Shown here: positions 4,688 to 54,986 of the stretch, one piece after another
Layout: every line of letters starts with the position of its first letter
Position numbering within the stretch: position 1 is the stretch's first letter
Origin: an uncultured Clostridia bacterium
GTDB lineage: Bacteria; Bacillota; Clostridia; Christensenellales; UBA1242
Reading direction: 5' to 3'
Assembly (NCBI GenBank): GCA_934754495.1
Contig: CAKVHW010000004.1
Location: 1,070 to 65,069, forward strand
Length of the DNA stretch: 64,000 nt
Program-made: the position numbers and the translations under genes
The notes under the pieces: model-generated
Databases searched by the model: none
Seen by the model: only the letters and a program-made list of their open reading frames with translations
Told to the model about the DNA's origin: nothing

Positions 4688-6349
4688 ATGAAACAAGCAA
4701 ATTTAAAAATGTCGTTTTTGGGTGGTGTAGGCGAAGTTGGCAAAAACATGATGGCACTAGAATACCAAAACGATATTATCATTATTGATGCGGGGCTAGC
4801 ATTCCCATCAGACGAAATGATGGGTGTTGACTTAGTAATTCCTGACATCACTTATCTAATTGCCAACAAAAATAAAATTAGAGCCATTATTTTAACTCAC
4901 GGTCACGAAGACCATATTGGTGCACTTCCATACGTGTTGCAAGATATTAAGGCTCCTATTTATGGTAGCAAACTAACTTGTGCTTTGGTTGAAAATAAGT
5001 TTAGAGAACATAAAAAAGTGGCTTGCAAACTTAATGTTGTAAAACCAAAACAAGTAATTAAAGCAGGTTGTTTTCAAATAGAATTTTTAAAAGTAACCCA
5101 TAGTATTAGTGGGGCTATGGCATTATGCATAACAACCCCAATTGGTGTGTATATTCACACAGGTGACTTTAAAATAGACTATACACCAATTGATGGTGAC
5201 CCTATGGACTTAGTTAGACTAGCTGAATTAAGTAAAAAGGGTGTGCTTCTAATGACATCTGATAGTACTAATGCAGAACGTCCAGGCTACAGTATGAGTG
5301 AAGCAAAAGTTGGTTTGACACTAGACGGATTATTTGCACAAAACAAAGAAAAACGTATTATTATAGCCACTTTTGCATCTAATATTCACCGTATCCAACA
5401 AGTACTAGACCTTTGCGAAAAGTATGGTAGAAAAGTTGTGTTTACAGGTAGAAGTATGCTAAATGTCTGCGAAACAGCAAGTAAAATTGGCGAACTAAAA
5501 TTCAATAGAGAACTACTTGGTGATGTAAACAATGTAGATAAAATGGACGATGATAAAACACTTATTTTGTGTACAGGTAGCCAGGGTGAAGCAAATAGTG
5601 CTTTGGCAAGAATGGCAGATGGTCAATTTAACAAAATTGAAATTAATGAAAATGACTATGTAATTTTCAGTTCGTCTTCAATTCCTGGAAACGAAAAGAA
5701 TATTAACGATGTTATAAATCAATTATATCGCCGTGGTGCAAGTGTAATATACGAAGGTCTTGCTGCAGTTCATGTGTCAGGACACGCATATCAAGAAGAA
5801 CTAAAAACAATGTTAAGTCTTGTTAGACCAAAGTTTTTCGTTCCATGCCATGGTGAATTCCGTCACCTTAAAGCACACGCAAAACTTGCAGAAGAAATTG
5901 GAATTAATCAAAGAAACATCATCATTCCAGACCTTGGCGATAGTATTTCTATTAGTCGTAACGTTATTAAGAAAATTGGTACTGTTCCAGCAGGAATTAG
6001 GCTTGTAGATGGCTTTGATGTAAGCGAAGCAGGTGGCGCTGTTCAACGTGATAGAGCATTGCTAGCCGAAGAAGGTGTGTGTGTTGTTGCACTTACCGTA
6101 AACAAAACAACAGGAAGTTTGTCTTCAAAACCAGAACTTATCTCACGTGGATTTATCTACATTAAAGATAATGCCGAAGTTATTGAAGAAGCAAAAGATT
6201 TAATTATTAATACAATATTAAATTGCAACTTTAAAACACAGGATTGGAATATGATTAAAGCCAACTTGAAAAAGGTTTTGTCAAACTTCTTCTATAAGAG
6301 AATGAAACGTAAACCAATGATTGTTCCTGTAATTATGGAAACTAAATAA
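4688..6349 (+). CDS. rnj: Ribonuclease J (beta-CASP metallo-beta-lactamase RNase)
   Basis: N-terminus FLGGVGEVGKNM, motif HGHEDHIGALPY and ~550 aa length. Strong AAGGAG RBS. Confidence 0.93.
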   Translation: MKQANLKMSFLGGVGEVGKNMMALEYQNDIIIIDAGLAFPSDEMMGVDLVIPDITYLIANKNKIRAIILTHGHEDHIGALPYVLQDIKAPIYGSKLTCALVENKFREHKKVACKLNVVKPKQVIKAGCFQIEFLKVTHSISGAMALCITTPIGVYIHTGDFKIDYTPIDGDPMDLVRLAELSKKGVLLMTSDSTNAERPGYSMSEAKVGLTLDGLFAQNKEKRIIIATFASNIHRIQQVLDLCEKYGRKVVFTGRSMLNVCETASKIGELKFNRELLGDVNNVDKMDDDKTLILCTGSQGEANSALARMADGQFNKIEINENDYVIFSSSSIPGNEKNINDVINQLYRRGASVIYEGLAAVHVSGHAYQEELKTMLSLVRPKFFVPCHGEFRHLKAHAKLAEEIGINQRNIIIPDLGDSISISRNVIKKIGTVPAGIRLVDGFDVSEAGGAVQRDRALLAEEGVCVVALTVNKTTGSLSSKPELISRGFIYIKDNAEVIEEAKDLIINTILNCNFKTQDWNMIKANLKKVLSNFFYKRMKRKPMIVPVIMETK

Positions 6350-6359
6350 GGTAGAATTA

Positions 6360-6938
6360 ATGGAAGATATTATAAAAGAAGCTAAGGAATTTCACATTCC
6401 TATAGTACGACCAAAAACCCTAGAACTGCTTTTAAAAACAATAAAAGAAGCTAATCCTAGCACTATTTTGGAAGTTGGCACCGCAACAGGTTATTCGGCA
6501 TGTAATATGCTAAGTGTGTGCGATGCTTTGCTTACAACAATAGAACTTAATCCCGACAACCAAGAAAAAGCAAAGTCAAATGTTGAAAGGCTAGGATTTA
6601 GTAATAGGGTGGAGTTTATATTAGGCGATGCAAAACAAGTGCTAAAAGACCTTGTAGAACAAAATAGAAAATACGATTTTGTGTTTTTGGATGGCCCAAA
6701 AGGTCAGTATATTAACTACTTGCCAGACATTACAAAAATACTTAATGTTGGCGGAATTTTGTTTGCCGATGACGTACTTTTTTATGGTCTTGTTAAGGGC
6801 GATGAATTTGTTCCGCACCGCAAACGCACAATAGTTGTAAACTTAAGAAAATACTTAAAAGAAGTAGAAAATAAGCCATTTTCTAGCACTTTAATTGATA
6901 TGGAAGATGGTGTATGTATTTCTAAAAAAGTGGAGTAA
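6360..6938 (+). CDS. Class I SAM-dependent O-methyltransferase (YrrM/TrmR-like)
   Basis: ILEVGTATGYS SAM motif and DFVFLDGPK. Sits directly upstream of a U32 peptidase gene, as in B. subtilis yrrM-yrrN-yrrO. Confidence 0.8.
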   Translation: MEDIIKEAKEFHIPIVRPKTLELLLKTIKEANPSTILEVGTATGYSACNMLSVCDALLTTIELNPDNQEKAKSNVERLGFSNRVEFILGDAKQVLKDLVEQNRKYDFVFLDGPKGQYINYLPDITKILNVGGILFADDVLFYGLVKGDEFVPHRKRTIVVNLRKYLKEVENKPFSSTLIDMEDGVCISKKVE

Positions 6939-6941
6939 AAT

Positions 6942-8156
6942 ATGATAGAGTTGTTAGCCCCAGCGGGCAATATGGAAAAATTAAAAACCGCATTTTATTT
7001 TGGTGCTGATGCATGCTATTTTGCTGGCAAACAATACGGTCTTCGTACATTTGCTGATAACTTTGATTTACCAGAACTTGAAGAGAGTGTAAAGTTTTGC
7101 CATAAGATGGGCAAAAAAGCATATATTACAATTAATGTTTTGGCTCACAATGGCGACTTTGCTGGGCTACCAGAATACTTGCAGTTTTTAAACAAAATTA
7201 AGGTAGATGCTGTAATTGTAAGCGATATTGGTGTTATGAGTTTTGTAAAACAATATGCACCTAGTGTAGATATTCACGTTAGCACCCAAGCAAGTGTAAC
7301 TAATAAATACACCGCAAAACAATTTGTTGATATGGGGGCAAAACGTATTATTTTAGCAAGAGAACTTAGTATTGACGAAATTAAGGAAATTCGAGATTAT
7401 CTTCCTAAAGATATTGAAATAGAAACATTTGTTCATGGTGCAATGTGTATTTCTTATTCTGGTAGATGTTTGCTTTCTAATTATCTTACAGGTCGTGATA
7501 GTAATCGTGGTGCTTGTGTACAAGCTTGCCGTTGGGAATACTGCATTCGTGAGAAAAACCGCAAGGGTGAGTACCTAGAAATGCAAGAAGACGAACGTGG
7601 CACATATATTTTAAATAGTAAAGACCTTAATATGATTGAATACATTGACAAACTTCGTGATGCTGGAGTTACTAGTTTTAAAATAGAAGGCAGAATGAAA
7701 AGCCCTTATTATGTGGCAACCGTTGTTAATGCTTACCGCCGTGCAATAGACATAATGGAAAAAGGCGGAGAATATCATTGCCCAGAGAGCTTGGTGGCAG
7801 AACTAGAAAAAGCCAGCCACCGCCGTTATACAACAGGGTTTTATTTTGGCTCTTATGATAAGGAATGTTTGGAAAGTAGTATGCCTGTTCAAACACACGA
7901 ATTTATGGCAATAGTGCTAGACGACCAGAAAGACGGCAAGGTTTTAATTGAAATGCGAAACCGCTTTAAGGTAGGCGAAACACTAGAAGTTCTTTCACCA
8001 AATAGCACATTTAACGAGCAAATTCTTGTAGAAAAAATGACCGATGAAAAAGGTCAAGAAGTACTTGATGCTAATCAAGTTCAACAAAATTTGTGGTTGT
8101 ACACAAATGTTAACCTTAAAAAGGGCGATATATTAAGAAAAAAAGTGATAAAATAA
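6942..8156 (+). CDS. Peptidase U32 family protein (YrrO/TrhP-like, tRNA ho5U synthesis candidate)
   Basis: MIELLAPAGN start, ARELS, and the Cys-rich segment GAMCISYSGRCLLSNY..RDSNRGACVQACRW typical of U32. Confidence 0.85.
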   Translation: MIELLAPAGNMEKLKTAFYFGADACYFAGKQYGLRTFADNFDLPELEESVKFCHKMGKKAYITINVLAHNGDFAGLPEYLQFLNKIKVDAVIVSDIGVMSFVKQYAPSVDIHVSTQASVTNKYTAKQFVDMGAKRIILARELSIDEIKEIRDYLPKDIEIETFVHGAMCISYSGRCLLSNYLTGRDSNRGACVQACRWEYCIREKNRKGEYLEMQEDERGTYILNSKDLNMIEYIDKLRDAGVTSFKIEGRMKSPYYVATVVNAYRRAIDIMEKGGEYHCPESLVAELEKASHRRYTTGFYFGSYDKECLESSMPVQTHEFMAIVLDDQKDGKVLIEMRNRFKVGETLEVLSPNSTFNEQILVEKMTDEKGQEVLDANQVQQNLWLYTNVNLKKGDILRKKVIK

Positions 8157-43831: not shown

Positions 43832-44812
43832 ATGGAGGAAAAGAGAGTGAAAATAGAAAATTTTACAAAGAAATCATTACAAGATGCAATACAAGATGGC
43901 AAAGTTAAGATTACTGTTGCTGAAGGTGGAGATGTGCTAGTTGAAGGTGCAGAAAGTGATATTGATGAGTATGGCATGATTTCAATTCCTGAAAATGTAG
44001 TTGCTATTGGTGTTGGAGCATATGAAAAATCTAAAGCATTAAAGGCTATTAATAGTATTAATGATACTTTCTTTATTGGTGTAGAGGCATTTTATGGTTG
44101 TAAAAATCTAGAAAGTGCATTTCTTATGTCTAAAGATACTGAAGGTAATGCTAAAAGAATTATTGGACAATATGCATTTGCAAATTGCACATCGTTAAAG
44201 AGATTATTTATTGATGATTCTTTTGTTGATTTGGAAGAAGGGGCATTTGAAAATTGCGAATCACTTGATAATGTTGTATTGCCAACTAACCTTGAAAGAA
44301 TTGGTGATAGAGCATTTGCTGGTTGTAAACACCTTCAAACCATCGAAATTCCAGATGGTGTAACTGAGATTGGAGAAGAAGCATTTAAGGGTTGTAAAGC
44401 ATTACAAATGGCAGTAATTCCAGAACACTTGGTTGAAGAATGTAATGCGAAAAACGTTTTTAAAGACTGCCCAAGATTACAAATTGTTGTTAAACCTGAA
44501 AAAATGAAAGAAGATATGAAGGTTAAAACACCTGTACCTGAAGAAAAACTTAACGAAAAGGTATTATATGCTATTAAGGCGAAAAATGATAAACAAAATT
44601 TAATTAATCACTTAAATGCTGAAACTAAACTTAAATCACGAAATGATGAACGTGAAAAACAAAATATGGATAGTTTAAAGGAAGCAGCAAGTAAATTACC
44701 TGAAAAAACTGATAAAGAAGCACTTGCATCTATTATTAAGAATAATGACATTAAAGACATTCCAAACGAAATTATTAAAAAAGGCAAATACGACAACATT
44801 AGAACAAAATAG
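43832..44812 (+). CDS. BspA-type leucine-rich repeat protein without a signal peptide, Lys/Glu-rich C-terminus
   Basis: Repeats of the IP..V..IG..AF..C..L form (e.g. IGDRAFAGCKHLQTIEIPDGVTEIGEEAFKGCKAL). The true start may be GTG 43847, 8 nt after GGAGG. Confidence 0.75.
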   Translation: MEEKRVKIENFTKKSLQDAIQDGKVKITVAEGGDVLVEGAESDIDEYGMISIPENVVAIGVGAYEKSKALKAINSINDTFFIGVEAFYGCKNLESAFLMSKDTEGNAKRIIGQYAFANCTSLKRLFIDDSFVDLEEGAFENCESLDNVVLPTNLERIGDRAFAGCKHLQTIEIPDGVTEIGEEAFKGCKALQMAVIPEHLVEECNAKNVFKDCPRLQIVVKPEKMKEDMKVKTPVPEEKLNEKVLYAIKAKNDKQNLINHLNAETKLKSRNDEREKQNMDSLKEAASKLPEKTDKEALASIIKNNDIKDIPNEIIKKGKYDNIRTK

Positions 44813-48997: not shown

Positions 48998-50143
48998 ATG
49001 AAAAGAATAGATGTTGTTATGAATATCATTAAGAGAGTTGACCCAAGAATAAGAGATATAAAAGAAGAAGATATTAATAGATTTATTGATAATTTTGTGG
49101 CGAAATATAATTCAGAATCAATGCATGATTACGTTAAGTTTATGTCTAGTTGTGAAGCCGATACACTTTCGCTTTACGAGGTTGTGGGCTCACTAGGGAA
49201 AACCGTTGATTATATTCCAAATGGTAGGCTTAGGGATATTAATTTTACAAAAGAAGATGTTCAAAAATGTATGCACGCTTTTTTTGGAAAATATCTTCCT
49301 AGAAAGGTAAATGTTGTTGATAGTATTTTAAATGGAACAGACCCATATTTTATAGACCCAGATGGAAACTCTCATGTGTATTTTAATAGTGTTCCTAAAG
49401 ACGATAGAAATTCAAGTTCAGTGGGACATAGTGATGAAAATAAATTCTTGGAATTTAATGTGTATTTGCATGGGTCTATTGAAGATTTATCAACAACAGC
49501 ACATGAACTTGGACACGCAATTTCCGCGTATCATCGAAGCTTGCTAGATAATGTTAGGGCTGGAAATAATGTCCCTAAAAGAGATCCTGCAAACGATTGT
49601 GTAGGCGAAATAGAAAGCCATATAATAGAGGGATTGTTTGTAAGATATTTAAGAGATAAAAATATGCTTACAATAGGCGATATGGAAGATTATAAAAATT
49701 GTAGTAATACTTCATTAATAAAAGAAACGACTACAATTACAGAAGAAAGAGAAATTCTAAAAGACCTTCCTAAAAATTTTACTCGTGACGATGTATTTGA
49801 TCTTATTGAAAAATATGATCAAAATAATGATTTAAATAAACTTAGAAGAGTTGAAAAAATGGCTAGTGAAAGGAGAGAAGGTCAATATCTTTTTAGATAT
49901 GTTGTAGGAAGGGTTGTTTCAGATCAATGGCTAAAGCAATATGACAATGCTGATGAAAATGCAAAACAAGGTATGCTAAATACATTCCAAGATTATTTAG
50001 ACAAAACAGATACAATCAAATTAGATGATGCTTGCGAAATGCTTATGGGACAAAATTATGCTTGTATTGTTGAAGATTTTGCAACAGATAAATTATCAGA
50101 ACGAAAAGATAGAATAAATACCACAAAAGAATTTTTTAAATAA
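48998..50143 (+). CDS. Short M3-like zinc metallopeptidase (HExxH ... ExxSxxxE)
   Basis: TAHELGHAIS followed ~33 aa later by GEIESHIIE, the gluzincin/M3 arrangement. At 381 aa it is well short of a typical PepF. Confidence 0.65.
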   Translation: MKRIDVVMNIIKRVDPRIRDIKEEDINRFIDNFVAKYNSESMHDYVKFMSSCEADTLSLYEVVGSLGKTVDYIPNGRLRDINFTKEDVQKCMHAFFGKYLPRKVNVVDSILNGTDPYFIDPDGNSHVYFNSVPKDDRNSSSVGHSDENKFLEFNVYLHGSIEDLSTTAHELGHAISAYHRSLLDNVRAGNNVPKRDPANDCVGEIESHIIEGLFVRYLRDKNMLTIGDMEDYKNCSNTSLIKETTTITEEREILKDLPKNFTRDDVFDLIEKYDQNNDLNKLRRVEKMASERREGQYLFRYVVGRVVSDQWLKQYDNADENAKQGMLNTFQDYLDKTDTIKLDDACEMLMGQNYACIVEDFATDKLSERKDRINTTKEFFK

Positions 50144-51638: not shown

Positions 51639-51826
51639 TGTTTTGCTCCAATATTAATAATTTCTATAAAAATATATCACAAAAAAATAAATGTCTACAA
51701 ATGTTAAACAAGATTTTATTAAAAACCTTATAATAACATTAAAAAATATTAATATATTAAAGAGTGTTTTGTTTTGAATAAAACTGTTATTGTGATATAC
51801 TTTTTTTTAGTACAAAGGAGAAATTG

Positions 51827-52801
51827 ATGAAAAAGGGCGGTTGGAAGTACCTAAACAAAATGTGGTGGATGGTAATTATTATTACCATTATATCAATTAC
51901 CGCAACATTACTATCACAAATGGTTTATAAGTTTATAGGATATACGATTGACTATGGACTTAATTATACCGGAAAAGATTATTCTGGTTTGTTGGGATTT
52001 TTGTTTGATGGTAGAATGGGTGATTATGGAAGCTATAAGCTTACAGTATCACTTACTCTTATTATGATTGTAATTTTAGTTATGGAAGCAATGCTTAATT
52101 ATTATTTAAGTTACCTTCAAATGAAAGCACAATATGGTAGCAGTCACAATATTAGAAAGGAAGTATTTTATAGAATAAAAAATAAAAAAGCACCTTATTC
52201 ACAGGGGAGTATGATTAATTTGTATCTTGATGACATTTATCAACATGCATCGGTTTACTTTTATCAAATTCCAGGCATTATTGTGTCAATTGTAACCATA
52301 ACTTTCTGCTTACTTCTTCTTAATCAAATTAGTCCCTTGCTTTTGATAGCACCATTAGGATTATCACCATTACTAATTTATTTTAGCATTAAGTATCACA
52401 AAGAAATTTATGATAAAAACCTTTCATACCGTGAAGTAGATGGCGAATTAAAAGAATCGGTAAACGAAACATTGTTTTCCAATGACCAAGAAAAGTACAA
52501 TAATTTTAAAAAAGTCAACAATGAACATAAGGCAGAAAGAAAAATTATTAGTCTTGTTCCTAATAAATACACTTTAATTTTAAATTCTGTAAAAATAATC
52601 ATTTACATTATATGTTGTACGCTAGCCGGTATTCTTGCAATTAAAGGAAAGGTTTTAATAGGAGAATATTTAATATTTACAAAATTTGTTAATACAATAT
52701 ACACCCAAATTATAAGCCTTATTAATTACTTTATTAATATTAGAGCTGCACTTCCAAAAATTGAAAAAGTGGACAAAATTTTGGAGGTGCCAAATGAATA
52801 A
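51827..52801 (+). CDS. ABC exporter-type transmembrane domain protein, no nucleotide-binding domain
   Basis: AAGGAG RBS. Six-helix ABC_membrane-like layout. Ends at ..RAALPKIEKVDKILEVPNE, the linker that normally precedes the NBD. No Walker A motif. Confidence 0.7.
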   Translation: MKKGGWKYLNKMWWMVIIITIISITATLLSQMVYKFIGYTIDYGLNYTGKDYSGLLGFLFDGRMGDYGSYKLTVSLTLIMIVILVMEAMLNYYLSYLQMKAQYGSSHNIRKEVFYRIKNKKAPYSQGSMINLYLDDIYQHASVYFYQIPGIIVSIVTITFCLLLLNQISPLLLIAPLGLSPLLIYFSIKYHKEIYDKNLSYREVDGELKESVNETLFSNDQEKYNNFKKVNNEHKAERKIISLVPNKYTLILNSVKIIIYIICCTLAGILAIKGKVLIGEYLIFTKFVNTIYTQIISLINYFINIRAALPKIEKVDKILEVPNE

Positions 52802-53771
52802 TAGTAAATATGTTTGGCGAATGACCAAATACTTTTTCAGAAACAAAAAAGCCACATTTTATTCAATACTAATGTGCATAATTGGACTTGCTGTTGGGCT
52901 ATTTACACCAATTGCAAACTCTTACATTCAAAATGAAATTATTCCAAACAAAAACATCTCACTTTTTGTAATATTGACAATTGTAATTTTAATCCTTAAT
53001 TTTGCTTCAATTCTATCGGCGTATTTTAACACAAAAATTATGGTTGATAATAGTGTTCCAATAACAGCAAATATTAGACGTGATATTGTTAAAATGAACA
53101 CTTTTAGCAACAAAAACAAACAAATTAGAGGTATTGTTTCAATTAGCTCAACACAATTCTTGGAAGATGCTAATAGTTACTATATTAGTTATTTAAACAC
53201 CTCATATGATAGCTTGTTAAAGTTTATGTTTTTCTTTCCCTTTTTTATTGCATCAGGAAAGAAATTGGCACTTATAATGATTGCATCACTCGCTTTTTAT
53301 TTTGCACTAGTAAATGTTATTTCTATATATTCTCAAAAATGTGCCGATAAATCTCGTGAAGCTGATAAGGTTAGATACGAATATTTACTAAAAATGACAA
53401 AAGCATTACAACAACCAGACTTTGAAGAAAATGACGAAATATCATATCTAAAATATAAGGAAGTTATTAAAAATACTGAAAAAGCATGGATTAAATACTG
53501 CCTTGTAAACAATATTTTTGACTTTACTAGATTGTTTATATGGTATGGAATGTTTGGTTTAACTTGCATATTAGCATATCATAGTATTGAAATAGGGGCA
53601 ATGAGCGTAGGGGCATTTGTTGTTTATCATTCATATTTTTCACAACTTGATTCACCTCTTTCTCAGTTTGTTAACTTTATTAAAAACTGCAACCAAAACA
53701 ATATGACATTCAAAAATATTTTCATATCATTAGATGACGAAGAACTTCTTGACCTTAAAAAAGAAAATTAA
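52794..53771 (+). CDS. Second ABC exporter-type transmembrane domain protein, no nucleotide-binding domain
   Basis: ATG follows GGAGGTG and overlaps the upstream stop by 8 nt (ATGAATAA). ABC_membrane-like helices. Ends ..NMTFKNIFISLDDEE... with no Walker A motif. Confidence 0.7.
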   Translation: MNNSKYVWRMTKYFFRNKKATFYSILMCIIGLAVGLFTPIANSYIQNEIIPNKNISLFVILTIVILILNFASILSAYFNTKIMVDNSVPITANIRRDIVKMNTFSNKNKQIRGIVSISSTQFLEDANSYYISYLNTSYDSLLKFMFFFPFFIASGKKLALIMIASLAFYFALVNVISIYSQKCADKSREADKVRYEYLLKMTKALQQPDFEENDEISYLKYKEVIKNTEKAWIKYCLVNNIFDFTRLFIWYGMFGLTCILAYHSIEIGAMSVGAFVVYHSYFSQLDSPLSQFVNFIKNCNQNNMTFKNIFISLDDEELLDLKKEN

Positions 53772-53855
53772 AAAAATGTTTTAATTGTTGAGTATTGAAA
53801 AACAACATTATTTGTGATACTATGATAGGTGTTTAATTTAAAAGAGGGAAACAAA

Positions 53856-54869
53856 ATGACAATTGCAGAAGAATTTAAAAATTTTGATAAGGACTTTTCA
53901 AATTTATTCAGAAACTGTTTGTTGTATAAACAAATTAAAAGCAATTATGATGCCAATGCCGTTAAAAAGATGATTGATTCTGTGGCTGAATTATATAGAA
54001 AAGATTATAATAATTCTTTAGAAGAATATAAAAATAATATAACAAAAAAAAGAAAAGAACTTTGTAACGCTAGAGTAATTACGTTGGAATCTTATAAAGA
54101 ATATAAAAGAGCCTATACCGATTATAAAAACACAATGCTTAATATTAATAAAATGAAAGAGCTTAATCCTGAATTATCATTTGAAAATCAAAAAGAACAA
54201 GCGAGAATATTACTTGATAGAAAAGAAAGTGGATTTAATAATGCTAAAATTCGTTATGATAATTTAAAAAATGAATACGAAAAAATTACAAGTAATTCCC
54301 AAAATGGAACTGATGATATATTGGAAAAGATAAAAAAGAAAAACATGGAAAATGAAGAAAATCTAAAATTAATTAACCATGTTTTTCGCCTAAATAAAAA
54401 GTCTTTAACCACTTTTGAAGATGTTGTTAATAGAGAAATAATAGATTTCAAAACCAAATATAATATATCAAGCAATACTTTTGTAAATAGATTGGAAAAA
54501 GCGACAAAGCAACATTGGAAAATTGTTGAATCGGATGGAATAAGCATTGGCTGTTGTTACGCAATAGTAAACGAAGATGTATTTGGTAAAGAGAAAAACA
54601 CTTTTTCTAAAGATGACATTAATGCTAATAAAGAAAATGGCAACATTTTTCTAGTTACTAATTATGAAAAATCAAAAATTAATTCTAGTTCTAAAGAAAA
54701 TCCTGATAAGCATAATTGGATAGAAGATTATTTATTGTATAAAGGTGTATATACTGACGAAAAAAAGTTAAACAAGATGCAAAACACATCAGCCAAACAA
54801 AGAGAACTAGTTTTAAGAACAGTTGATTCCTATCTTAGTTTATTGTCATACACCAGATATAAACCATAA
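53856..54869 (+). CDS. Hypothetical protein (337 aa, coiled-coil N-terminal half)
   Basis: AGAGGGAA RBS. Terminator ATAAACCC / GGGTTTAT plus T-run at 54873-54898. No NTPase motif. Confidence 0.6.
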   Translation: MTIAEEFKNFDKDFSNLFRNCLLYKQIKSNYDANAVKKMIDSVAELYRKDYNNSLEEYKNNITKKRKELCNARVITLESYKEYKRAYTDYKNTMLNINKMKELNPELSFENQKEQARILLDRKESGFNNAKIRYDNLKNEYEKITSNSQNGTDDILEKIKKKNMENEENLKLINHVFRLNKKSLTTFEDVVNREIIDFKTKYNISSNTFVNRLEKATKQHWKIVESDGISIGCCYAIVNEDVFGKEKNTFSKDDINANKENGNIFLVTNYEKSKINSSSKENPDKHNWIEDYLLYKGVYTDEKKLNKMQNTSAKQRELVLRTVDSYLSLLSYTRYKP

Positions 54870-54986
54870 AAAATAAACCCATAGCGGGTTTATTTTTTAT
54901 TGTGCTACGGCATAAAAAACAAATATGGTTGACGGTTTAACTTATGATATGATATACTTATCGCATAAATTATTAAGGATAAAATT

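Follow-up and report, generated by a model that had tools for sequence, protein, structure and literature searches.

Whether a pair of ATP-binding cassette (ABC) exporter subunits can persist as a functional membrane protein after the loss of both of its ATPase domains, and what such a protein would then do, is the question raised by a locus of an uncultured Clostridia bacterium (contig CAKVHW010000004.1, positions 1,070 to 65,069 of the forward strand; this stretch of 64,000 nucleotides is hereafter called the window). Two overlapping genes on the plus strand of the window, gene 1 (51827..52801; ATG at 51827, TAA at 52799-52801; 324 residues) and gene 2 (52794..53771; ATG at 52794, TAA at 53769-53771; 325 residues), each encode a type IV ABC-exporter membrane domain only, without the nucleotide-binding domain (NBD) to which it is usually fused. 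The fold, the absence of NBDs, the conservation, the purifying selection, the ancestry and the deletions in the coupling helices of this pair were computed in the present study, and in our judgment the chances are about even that the pair acts as a functional heterodimeric transporter that works without NBDs, being either gradient-driven or facilitative.

The membrane-domain fold is clear in both proteins. A Pfam scan aligned residues 16-292 of the gene 1 protein with positions 1-271 of the 274-position model PF00664 (ABC_membrane) at 36.2 bits, and residues 22-286 of the gene 2 protein with positions 2-271 at 41.5 bits, both above the gathering score of 28 over the full model, while PF00005 (ABC_tran) matched neither protein. 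Profiles of the two families matched Sav1866, BmrCD (YheH), TM288, TmrAB, ABCB6 and MsbA in the PDB, and these alignments end around Sav1866 residue 322, just ahead of the NBD of Sav1866, which places the end of both proteins at the linker through which an NBD is normally attached. AlphaFold2 monomer models (pLDDT, the per-residue confidence score, 82 for gene 1 and 75 for gene 2), in which helices were assigned with DSSP, consist of six long helices each, with the cytoplasmic helix extensions and a short N-terminal helix. Foldseek compared the models with type IV exporter membrane domains at query-normalized TM-scores of 0.65-0.80 and a probability of 1.00; the matches were the membrane domains of TM287/288, PCAT1, BmrCD and TmrAB for gene 1 and those of HlyB, MsbA, TmrAB and TM287/288, with scores up to 0.80, for gene 2. 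Both proteins have, therefore, the type IV ABC-exporter membrane-domain fold, and they are paralogues that do not detect each other by BLASTP. A scan with NCBIfam models covered only the membrane part of full-length exporter models; the best match, to that part of NF045998, scored 53 bits where the cut-off is 500, and assignment to a substrate-specific exporter family was rejected because every match fell far below its cut-off.

The junction of the two genes reads CCA AAT GAA TAA in the frame of gene 1 and ATG AAT AAT AGT in that of gene 2, which gives the 8-nucleotide overlap ATGAATAA at 52794..52801 (+) of the gene 2 start on the gene 1 stop. A GGAGG Shine-Dalgarno sequence lies 5 nucleotides 5′ of the gene 2 ATG and an AAGGAG 5′ of gene 1, as read from the sequence, and given the overlap and the GGAGG the two genes appear to be translationally coupled. 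A consensus scan placed a promoter-like site, by pattern match only, at 51774..51801 (+), composed of TTGAAT, a spacer of 16 and TATACT with a TG-extended -10 element. The six-helix fold in both products, their ends at the NBD linker and the 8-nucleotide overlap had all been proposed in a first-pass annotation made from the letters of the window, and each of these points was borne out, including by the PF00664 and PF00005 scan that it had suggested. In some strains (P0001, P0221 and others) gene 2 has been called with a 22-residue N-terminal extension, giving 347 residues; the corresponding region of the window, 52761-52793, opens with an in-frame TTG (52761). It is the ATG at 52794 with its GGAGG that fits the N-terminus conserved throughout the family, and the extension is therefore likely to be an artefact of gene calling.

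Two truncated genes side by side might be decaying pseudogene remnants of a heterodimeric exporter, or might result from errors of assembly or gene calling. An artefact was rejected because the exact gene 2 protein recurs, in an unchanged pair layout, on seven contigs that stem from different samples, and because the 90%-identity clusters of the pair proteins contain 22 and 24 members, on contigs of up to 910 kb. Word-indexed searches, reaching down to 40-45% identity, added 19 gene 2 clusters and 33 gene 1 clusters, and the lengths of the orthologues down to 40% identity are all 301-347 residues (mostly 324-341 in the 30 orthologue clusters of gene 1, and 316-335 in the 19 clusters of gene 2), so that length has been kept across 40-99% identity. 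The genes are adjacent and overlapping in every locus examined, including L013, L009 and L015, across at least four different neighbourhoods: the pair precedes argS in L009, L013 and the window, is flanked by genes for an ADP-ribosylglycohydrolase and a PnuC transporter in L008 and L015, and sits beside PlsY and TatD in L007 and L016. The carriers are uncultured gut Clostridia according to the titles of the records, and the pair proteins are labeled “hypothetical protein” by NCBI. In comparison with the relative of 78% identity, L013, the proportions of non-synonymous and synonymous differences (pN and pS) were 0.129 and 0.787 for gene 1 and 0.143 and 0.818 for gene 2, against 0.151 and 0.723 for the neighboring argS, which served as the control in place of a formal dN/dS ratio because the synonymous divergence from L013 is saturated. 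Purifying selection on the pair is as strong as on argS, and near-identical strains differ at 39 synonymous and 13 non-synonymous positions. The first-pass annotation considered the truncations to be designed architecture rather than decay, and named fused orthologues and deletion scars as the marks of pseudogenes; the orthologues are not membrane domain-NBD fusions, and tblastn searches of the window and of loci L001-L017 found no NBD-coding remnant 3′ of the pair. Pseudogenes were thus rejected on account of the uniform length and the pN far below pS, the Shine-Dalgarno sites and the overlap are also intact, and we consider decay or artefact extremely improbable, even though isolated truncated PF00664 open reading frames (ORFs) of similar length do exist.

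One such ORF, P0139 in locus L021, offers a contrasting case of actual decay: at 6001-7294, a 328-residue PF00664 ORF overlaps a 116-residue ABC_tran fragment and is followed by transposase genes of the Mu and IS21 types. A wider NBD-less class that would take in other short PF00664 proteins is, as a result, unsupported, P0139 being a decayed gene beside insertion sequence elements. P0135 was rejected as a member because it is a singleton on a 1.9-kb contig, and P0069, P0078 and P0080 because these fragments, which are frameshifted or lie at contig ends, continue into NBD sequence.

If the genes are intact, the next question is whether an ATPase is encoded elsewhere. The Walker A motif GxxxxGK[ST] is absent from gene 1, gene 2 and the 337-residue gene downstream of them, as the first-pass annotation had stated, and an LSGGQ-like signature is absent from all ORFs of at least 100 residues in the 64-kb window. 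With five NBD queries, including both NBDs of the sister pair described below, tblastn gave no match below an E-value of 1 in either the window or loci L001-L017, a search that reached about 200 kb of family flanks (up to 10 kb per locus) in addition to the window, while the same queries readily recovered the NBDs in loci L018 and L019 as a positive control. The Pfam lists of the genes neighboring the pair in its loci contain no ABC_tran, and the rest of the window is occupied by housekeeping genes such as those for RNase J, LepA, DnaK, PcrA, LigA, PriA, FakA, ArgRS and ThrRS. The gene 1/gene 2 pair itself is, judging from its motifs, unable to bind or hydrolyze ATP. It might nevertheless belong to a split ABC exporter that is still driven by ATP, in which one or two free-standing NBDs encoded elsewhere dock on the intracellular loops. 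Partners of bacterial ABC systems normally sit in the same operon, and the fact that no NBD was found in the 64-kb window, or closer than 10 kb to the pair in four or more unrelated neighbourhoods, argues against such an arrangement, which we regard as unlikely for this and for structural reasons that emerge from comparison with the closest relatives of the pair.

These relatives were found when HMMER was run exhaustively, with the profile of the gene 2 family, over all 1.84 billion representative proteins. From the NBD-less clade the search returned only two representatives (at 50% identity) that are full-length; the next match was P0058 (594 residues, 145 bits), a fusion of membrane domain and NBD that is encoded by the second gene of an overlapping pair (590 and 594 residues; L018 8236-11785). 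This sister pair, itself uncharacterized, is the closest system to the NBD-less pair: both consist of two diverged paralogous subunits in the same gene order with an 8-nucleotide overlap, which in L018 is ATGAGTAA, and both share the motifs IDxGLN...FLxxGxFGxxG in subunit 1 and IIPNK in subunit 2 within extracellular loop 1 (ECL1). A search with the gene 1 family profile gave six more sisters of 590-598 residues at 28-30% identity, and no intermediate architecture was present among its matches. Because the order and the 8-nucleotide overlap are shared and intermediates are lacking, the ancestor of the pair was an ordinary heterodimeric type IV exporter with fused NBDs, and both NBDs were lost before the NBD-less clade diversified. 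The NBDs of the sisters (P0247-P0252 and P0058) are themselves unusual. Across seven sequences, NBD1 has a normal Walker A, GGSGDGK[TS], along with the signature GN[SG]FG.Y, a Walker B reading IFDD without the catalytic glutamate, and an asparagine in place of the H-loop histidine; in NBD2, that of P0058, Walker A, LSDGE and DE are present and the H-loop histidine is likewise replaced by asparagine. Both composite ATP sites of the sister exporters thus carry non-consensus residues and may be catalytically impaired despite the retention of the NBDs, which hints, without proving it, that this lineage had come to rely less on ATP hydrolysis even before the loss of its NBDs. In L018, a type II-A CRISPR adaptation module (Cas1, Cas2 and Csn2) is found 7 kb away from the sister pair.

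Alignment with the sisters revealed that part of the apparatus on which NBDs dock has also disappeared. At the tip of intracellular loop 2 (ICL2) of gene 1 (52469..52486, +), eight residues are deleted between T215 and L216: the segment IEGIKSFK, which aligns to the conserved ICL2 coupling-helix motif (QGISVVKSF in Sav1866), is present in all seven NBD-bearing sisters and in no NBD-less gene 1 protein, and the gap is flanked by the anchors ..KEN/..NET and LFN/LFS. AlphaFold2 predicts a 5-residue turn at this tip, where conservation is lower than anywhere else in the protein (0.54; the mean of the family is 0.72). At the ICL1 tip of gene 2 (53088..53135, +; residues 99-114, the region of coupling helix 1), three residues are deleted between T103 and F104; every NBD-less gene 2 protein is three residues short here in comparison with the NBD-bearing P0058 and P0061-P0063, and the model has low confidence with a helix break of just two residues. 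Region by region, the ICL tips, which are the former docking loops, show average or the lowest conservation, and not the preferential conservation that docking of an NBD would lead one to expect. The lack of coupling helices has already been used to argue against orphan NBDs, both for SbmA (PMC8442886) and for the SbmA-like peptide transporters (SLiPTs) in general (PMC8442886, PMC13316013). In favor of the split exporter, both C-terminal linker tails are moderately conserved, as in LDD.EL of gene 2. The first-pass annotation left two options standing, namely NBDs encoded elsewhere and a non-ATPase use of the fold. The deletion of coupling-helix segments and the weak conservation of the former docking loops speak here for the second.

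A non-ATPase use of the fold does not have to be transport. The fold might have been re-purposed as a membrane scaffold, a sensor or regulator, a channel-like pore, a receptor or an immunity protein, as ABC folds have been re-used as a channel in CFTR and as a regulator in SUR. The distribution of conservation is of interest in this respect, since it is highest in ECL1 of both subunits, in transmembrane helices (TM) 1-3 of gene 2 and in TM4-6 of gene 1; the values are 0.77-0.89 for gene 2 TM1-3 (52794-53250) and gene 1 TM4-6 (52340-52730), and 0.58-0.68 for gene 1 TM1-3 and gene 2 TM4-5. ECL1 of gene 1 (51950..52033, +; residues 42-69, DYGLNYTG..YSG.L.FLF.G.FGDYGS) is a 28-residue Gly/aromatic-rich loop with a conservation of 0.79 and with D42, Y43, N46, F60, G62, G65, Y67 and G68 invariant. 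In canonical domain-swapped type IV exporters, each wing combines TM1-3 and TM6 from one subunit with TM4-5 from its partner. Because the conserved helices match this scheme, gene 2 TM1-3/TM6 and gene 1 TM4-5 would form one wing of the dimer, and such asymmetric conservation would support heterodimer formation and an asymmetric functional site. Strong extracellular conservation and, if the canonical architecture holds, its concentration in one predicted wing would fit a single binding surface and hence a role other than transport. The ECL1 motifs are, however, common to the NBD-bearing sister exporters and are therefore ancestral transporter features rather than innovations; in addition, the AlphaFold2 models keep the long cytoplasmic helix extensions of alternating-access exporters, and no conserved partner gene was found. 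A non-transport role is, on balance, rather improbable in our estimation, although not negligible.

Transport without NBDs is thus the reading that we prefer, and it can be outlined as follows. Genes 1 and 2 would constitute a bicistronic, translationally coupled operon for two subunits, which are predicted to assemble into a domain-swapped heterodimer in the membrane, built on the type IV ABC-exporter fold. From an ancestral classical heterodimeric exporter, both ATPase domains would have been deleted at the TM6-NBD linker in a clade of gut Clostridia, and part of the coupling helices would have been lost after that deletion. Even without an ATPase of its own, the complex most likely continues to transport a substrate by alternating access, and would do so either as a facilitator or with an ion gradient as the driving force, in the manner of SbmA/BacA and the engineered NBD-less LmrA and MsbA; we infer heterodimer formation, transport activity and the energy source alike from these lines of evidence. 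Several observations weigh against this outline. ICL2 of gene 2 has its canonical length, with F210 and E212 invariant, and ICL1 of gene 1 has no insertion or deletion relative to the sister; because these two lengths are intact, one of the former docking sites might still accept a cytoplasmic partner, and the same observations favor a split exporter. So does the reach of the NBD scan, which comprised the window and the family flanks, so that a stand-alone NBD might be encoded at a distance. The invariant acidic residues are few and scattered (D42, D136, D205 and E280 in gene 1; E124, D139, E212 and D314 in gene 2), and a ladder of conserved acidic residues like that of SbmA is not evident in the family alignments, to which this comparison was confined; there is therefore no positive sign of proton coupling. 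Finally, none of the loci examined has a conserved neighbor pointing to a substrate.

Among known systems, the heterodimeric exporters BmrCD, LmrCD, EfrCD, TM287/288 and TmrAB from Firmicutes and Thermotogae are like the pair in Pfam family and membrane-domain fold, whereas the pair lacks both NBDs, the ICL2 motif of subunit 1 and a part of ICL1 of subunit 2. The SLiPTs, represented by SbmA/BacA, are proton-driven peptide importers that have been proposed to derive from full-length ABC transporters through the loss of NBDs and coupling helices, and they are secondary transporters, the mechanism proposed here for the pair (PMC8442886, PMC13316013). This family (PF05992, from YddA-like type IV ABC transporters) is likewise natural, conserved and NBD-less, with degraded coupling helices. 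The differences are nonetheless considerable: PF05992 (SbmA_BacA) has no match in the pair at E<=1, while the pair, unlike SLiPTs, keeps the PF00664 sequence signature; each subunit of the pair has 6 helices without TM0, and each SLiPT protomer has 8 with an extra TM0 domain; the pair is a predicted heterodimer of two paralogues from Clostridia of the Gram-positive type, and SLiPTs are homodimers from Proteobacteria; no glutamate ladder is evident and the loss of coupling helices is partial in the pair; and its NBD loss is independent of that of SLiPTs, with an NBD-bearing sister clade still extant. Proton- or ion-coupled transport has also been described for the NBD-less constructs MsbA-MD and LmrA-MD (PMC4979069, PMC2704374). 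They are cut at the same linker, MsbA-MD ending after N346 and the pair at about residue 322-325 in Sav1866 numbering, but are laboratory truncations of homodimers with intact coupling helices, in contrast to the pair, which is natural and under selection and would be a heterodimer. The best reading is that the pair is an NBD-less natural derivative of a type IV exporter, the second natural case beside SbmA/BacA. No description of such a family was found in the searchable literature, the coverage of which is incomplete. We give slightly less than even chances to the proposal that an ATP-driven exporter has here been converted naturally into an ATP-independent transporter for a second time, independently of the SLiPTs and comparatively recently, and that this is the first such case to be heterodimeric and to have an extant NBD-bearing sister with non-consensus ATPase motifs.

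The genes around the pair include no conserved partner. Gene 3 (53856-54869, +), which lies between the pair and argS, encodes a 337-residue Lys/Glu/Asn-rich orphan protein with no match to a Pfam, NCBIfam or PHROG family. The first-pass annotation grouped this gene with the pair, a grouping that did not hold: gene 3 has its own promoter-like site (53795-53823) and a strong hairpin terminator (54866-54900), occurs only in the species cluster of the window (9 cluster members), and is absent from L013 and from L009 (47%), where argS directly follows the pair. It was accordingly rejected as a third component and is best regarded, from its distribution, as a lineage-specific insertion outside the module. 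TG-extended -10 promoter-like sites of similar form, TGTGATATACT, TGTGATACTAT and TATGATATACT, precede the pair (51774-51801), gene 3 and argS (54929-54958), which would make these three successive transcription units, and the TG-extended -10 may be the preferred promoter type of this low-GC host. On the 5′ side of the pair, 48998-50143 (+) encodes a 381-residue protein with a HELGH (HExxH) motif, which suggests a zinc metallopeptidase; it has no Pfam family above threshold and no PHROG match, a 388-residue ORF occupies the equivalent position in L013, and the protein may belong to an undescribed peptidase family. Neither this protein nor MalQ qualified as a conserved partner, because they are not beside the pair in L007, L008 and L009. 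Farther upstream, a BspA-type leucine-rich-repeat protein (LRR_5, E 6.6e-34) is encoded at 43832-44812 (+) amid the housekeeping genes, and much larger LRR_5 proteins are found near the sister pair in L018.

Transport by the membrane domains of ABC exporters alone has been argued about since the NBD-less LmrA and MsbA constructs were made. To our knowledge, no natural NBD-less relative other than SbmA/BacA has been available so far, and the divergence of SbmA/BacA is too great for the individual steps of the transition to be traced. The family described here appears to preserve these steps, namely a sister with full but non-consensus NBDs, a clean loss of NBDs at the linker and a partial deletion of the coupling helices, with gene order and translational coupling kept throughout, so that a comparison of the two clades would put the transition from primary to secondary transport to the test. 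In automated annotation, the pair would probably receive the wrong label of ABC transporter permeases, which implies an ATP-driven system that may not exist. If our reading is true, the pair would be a natural counterpart to the debate over LmrA-MD and MsbA-MD and would provide a tractable system for studying the change of a primary into a secondary transporter.

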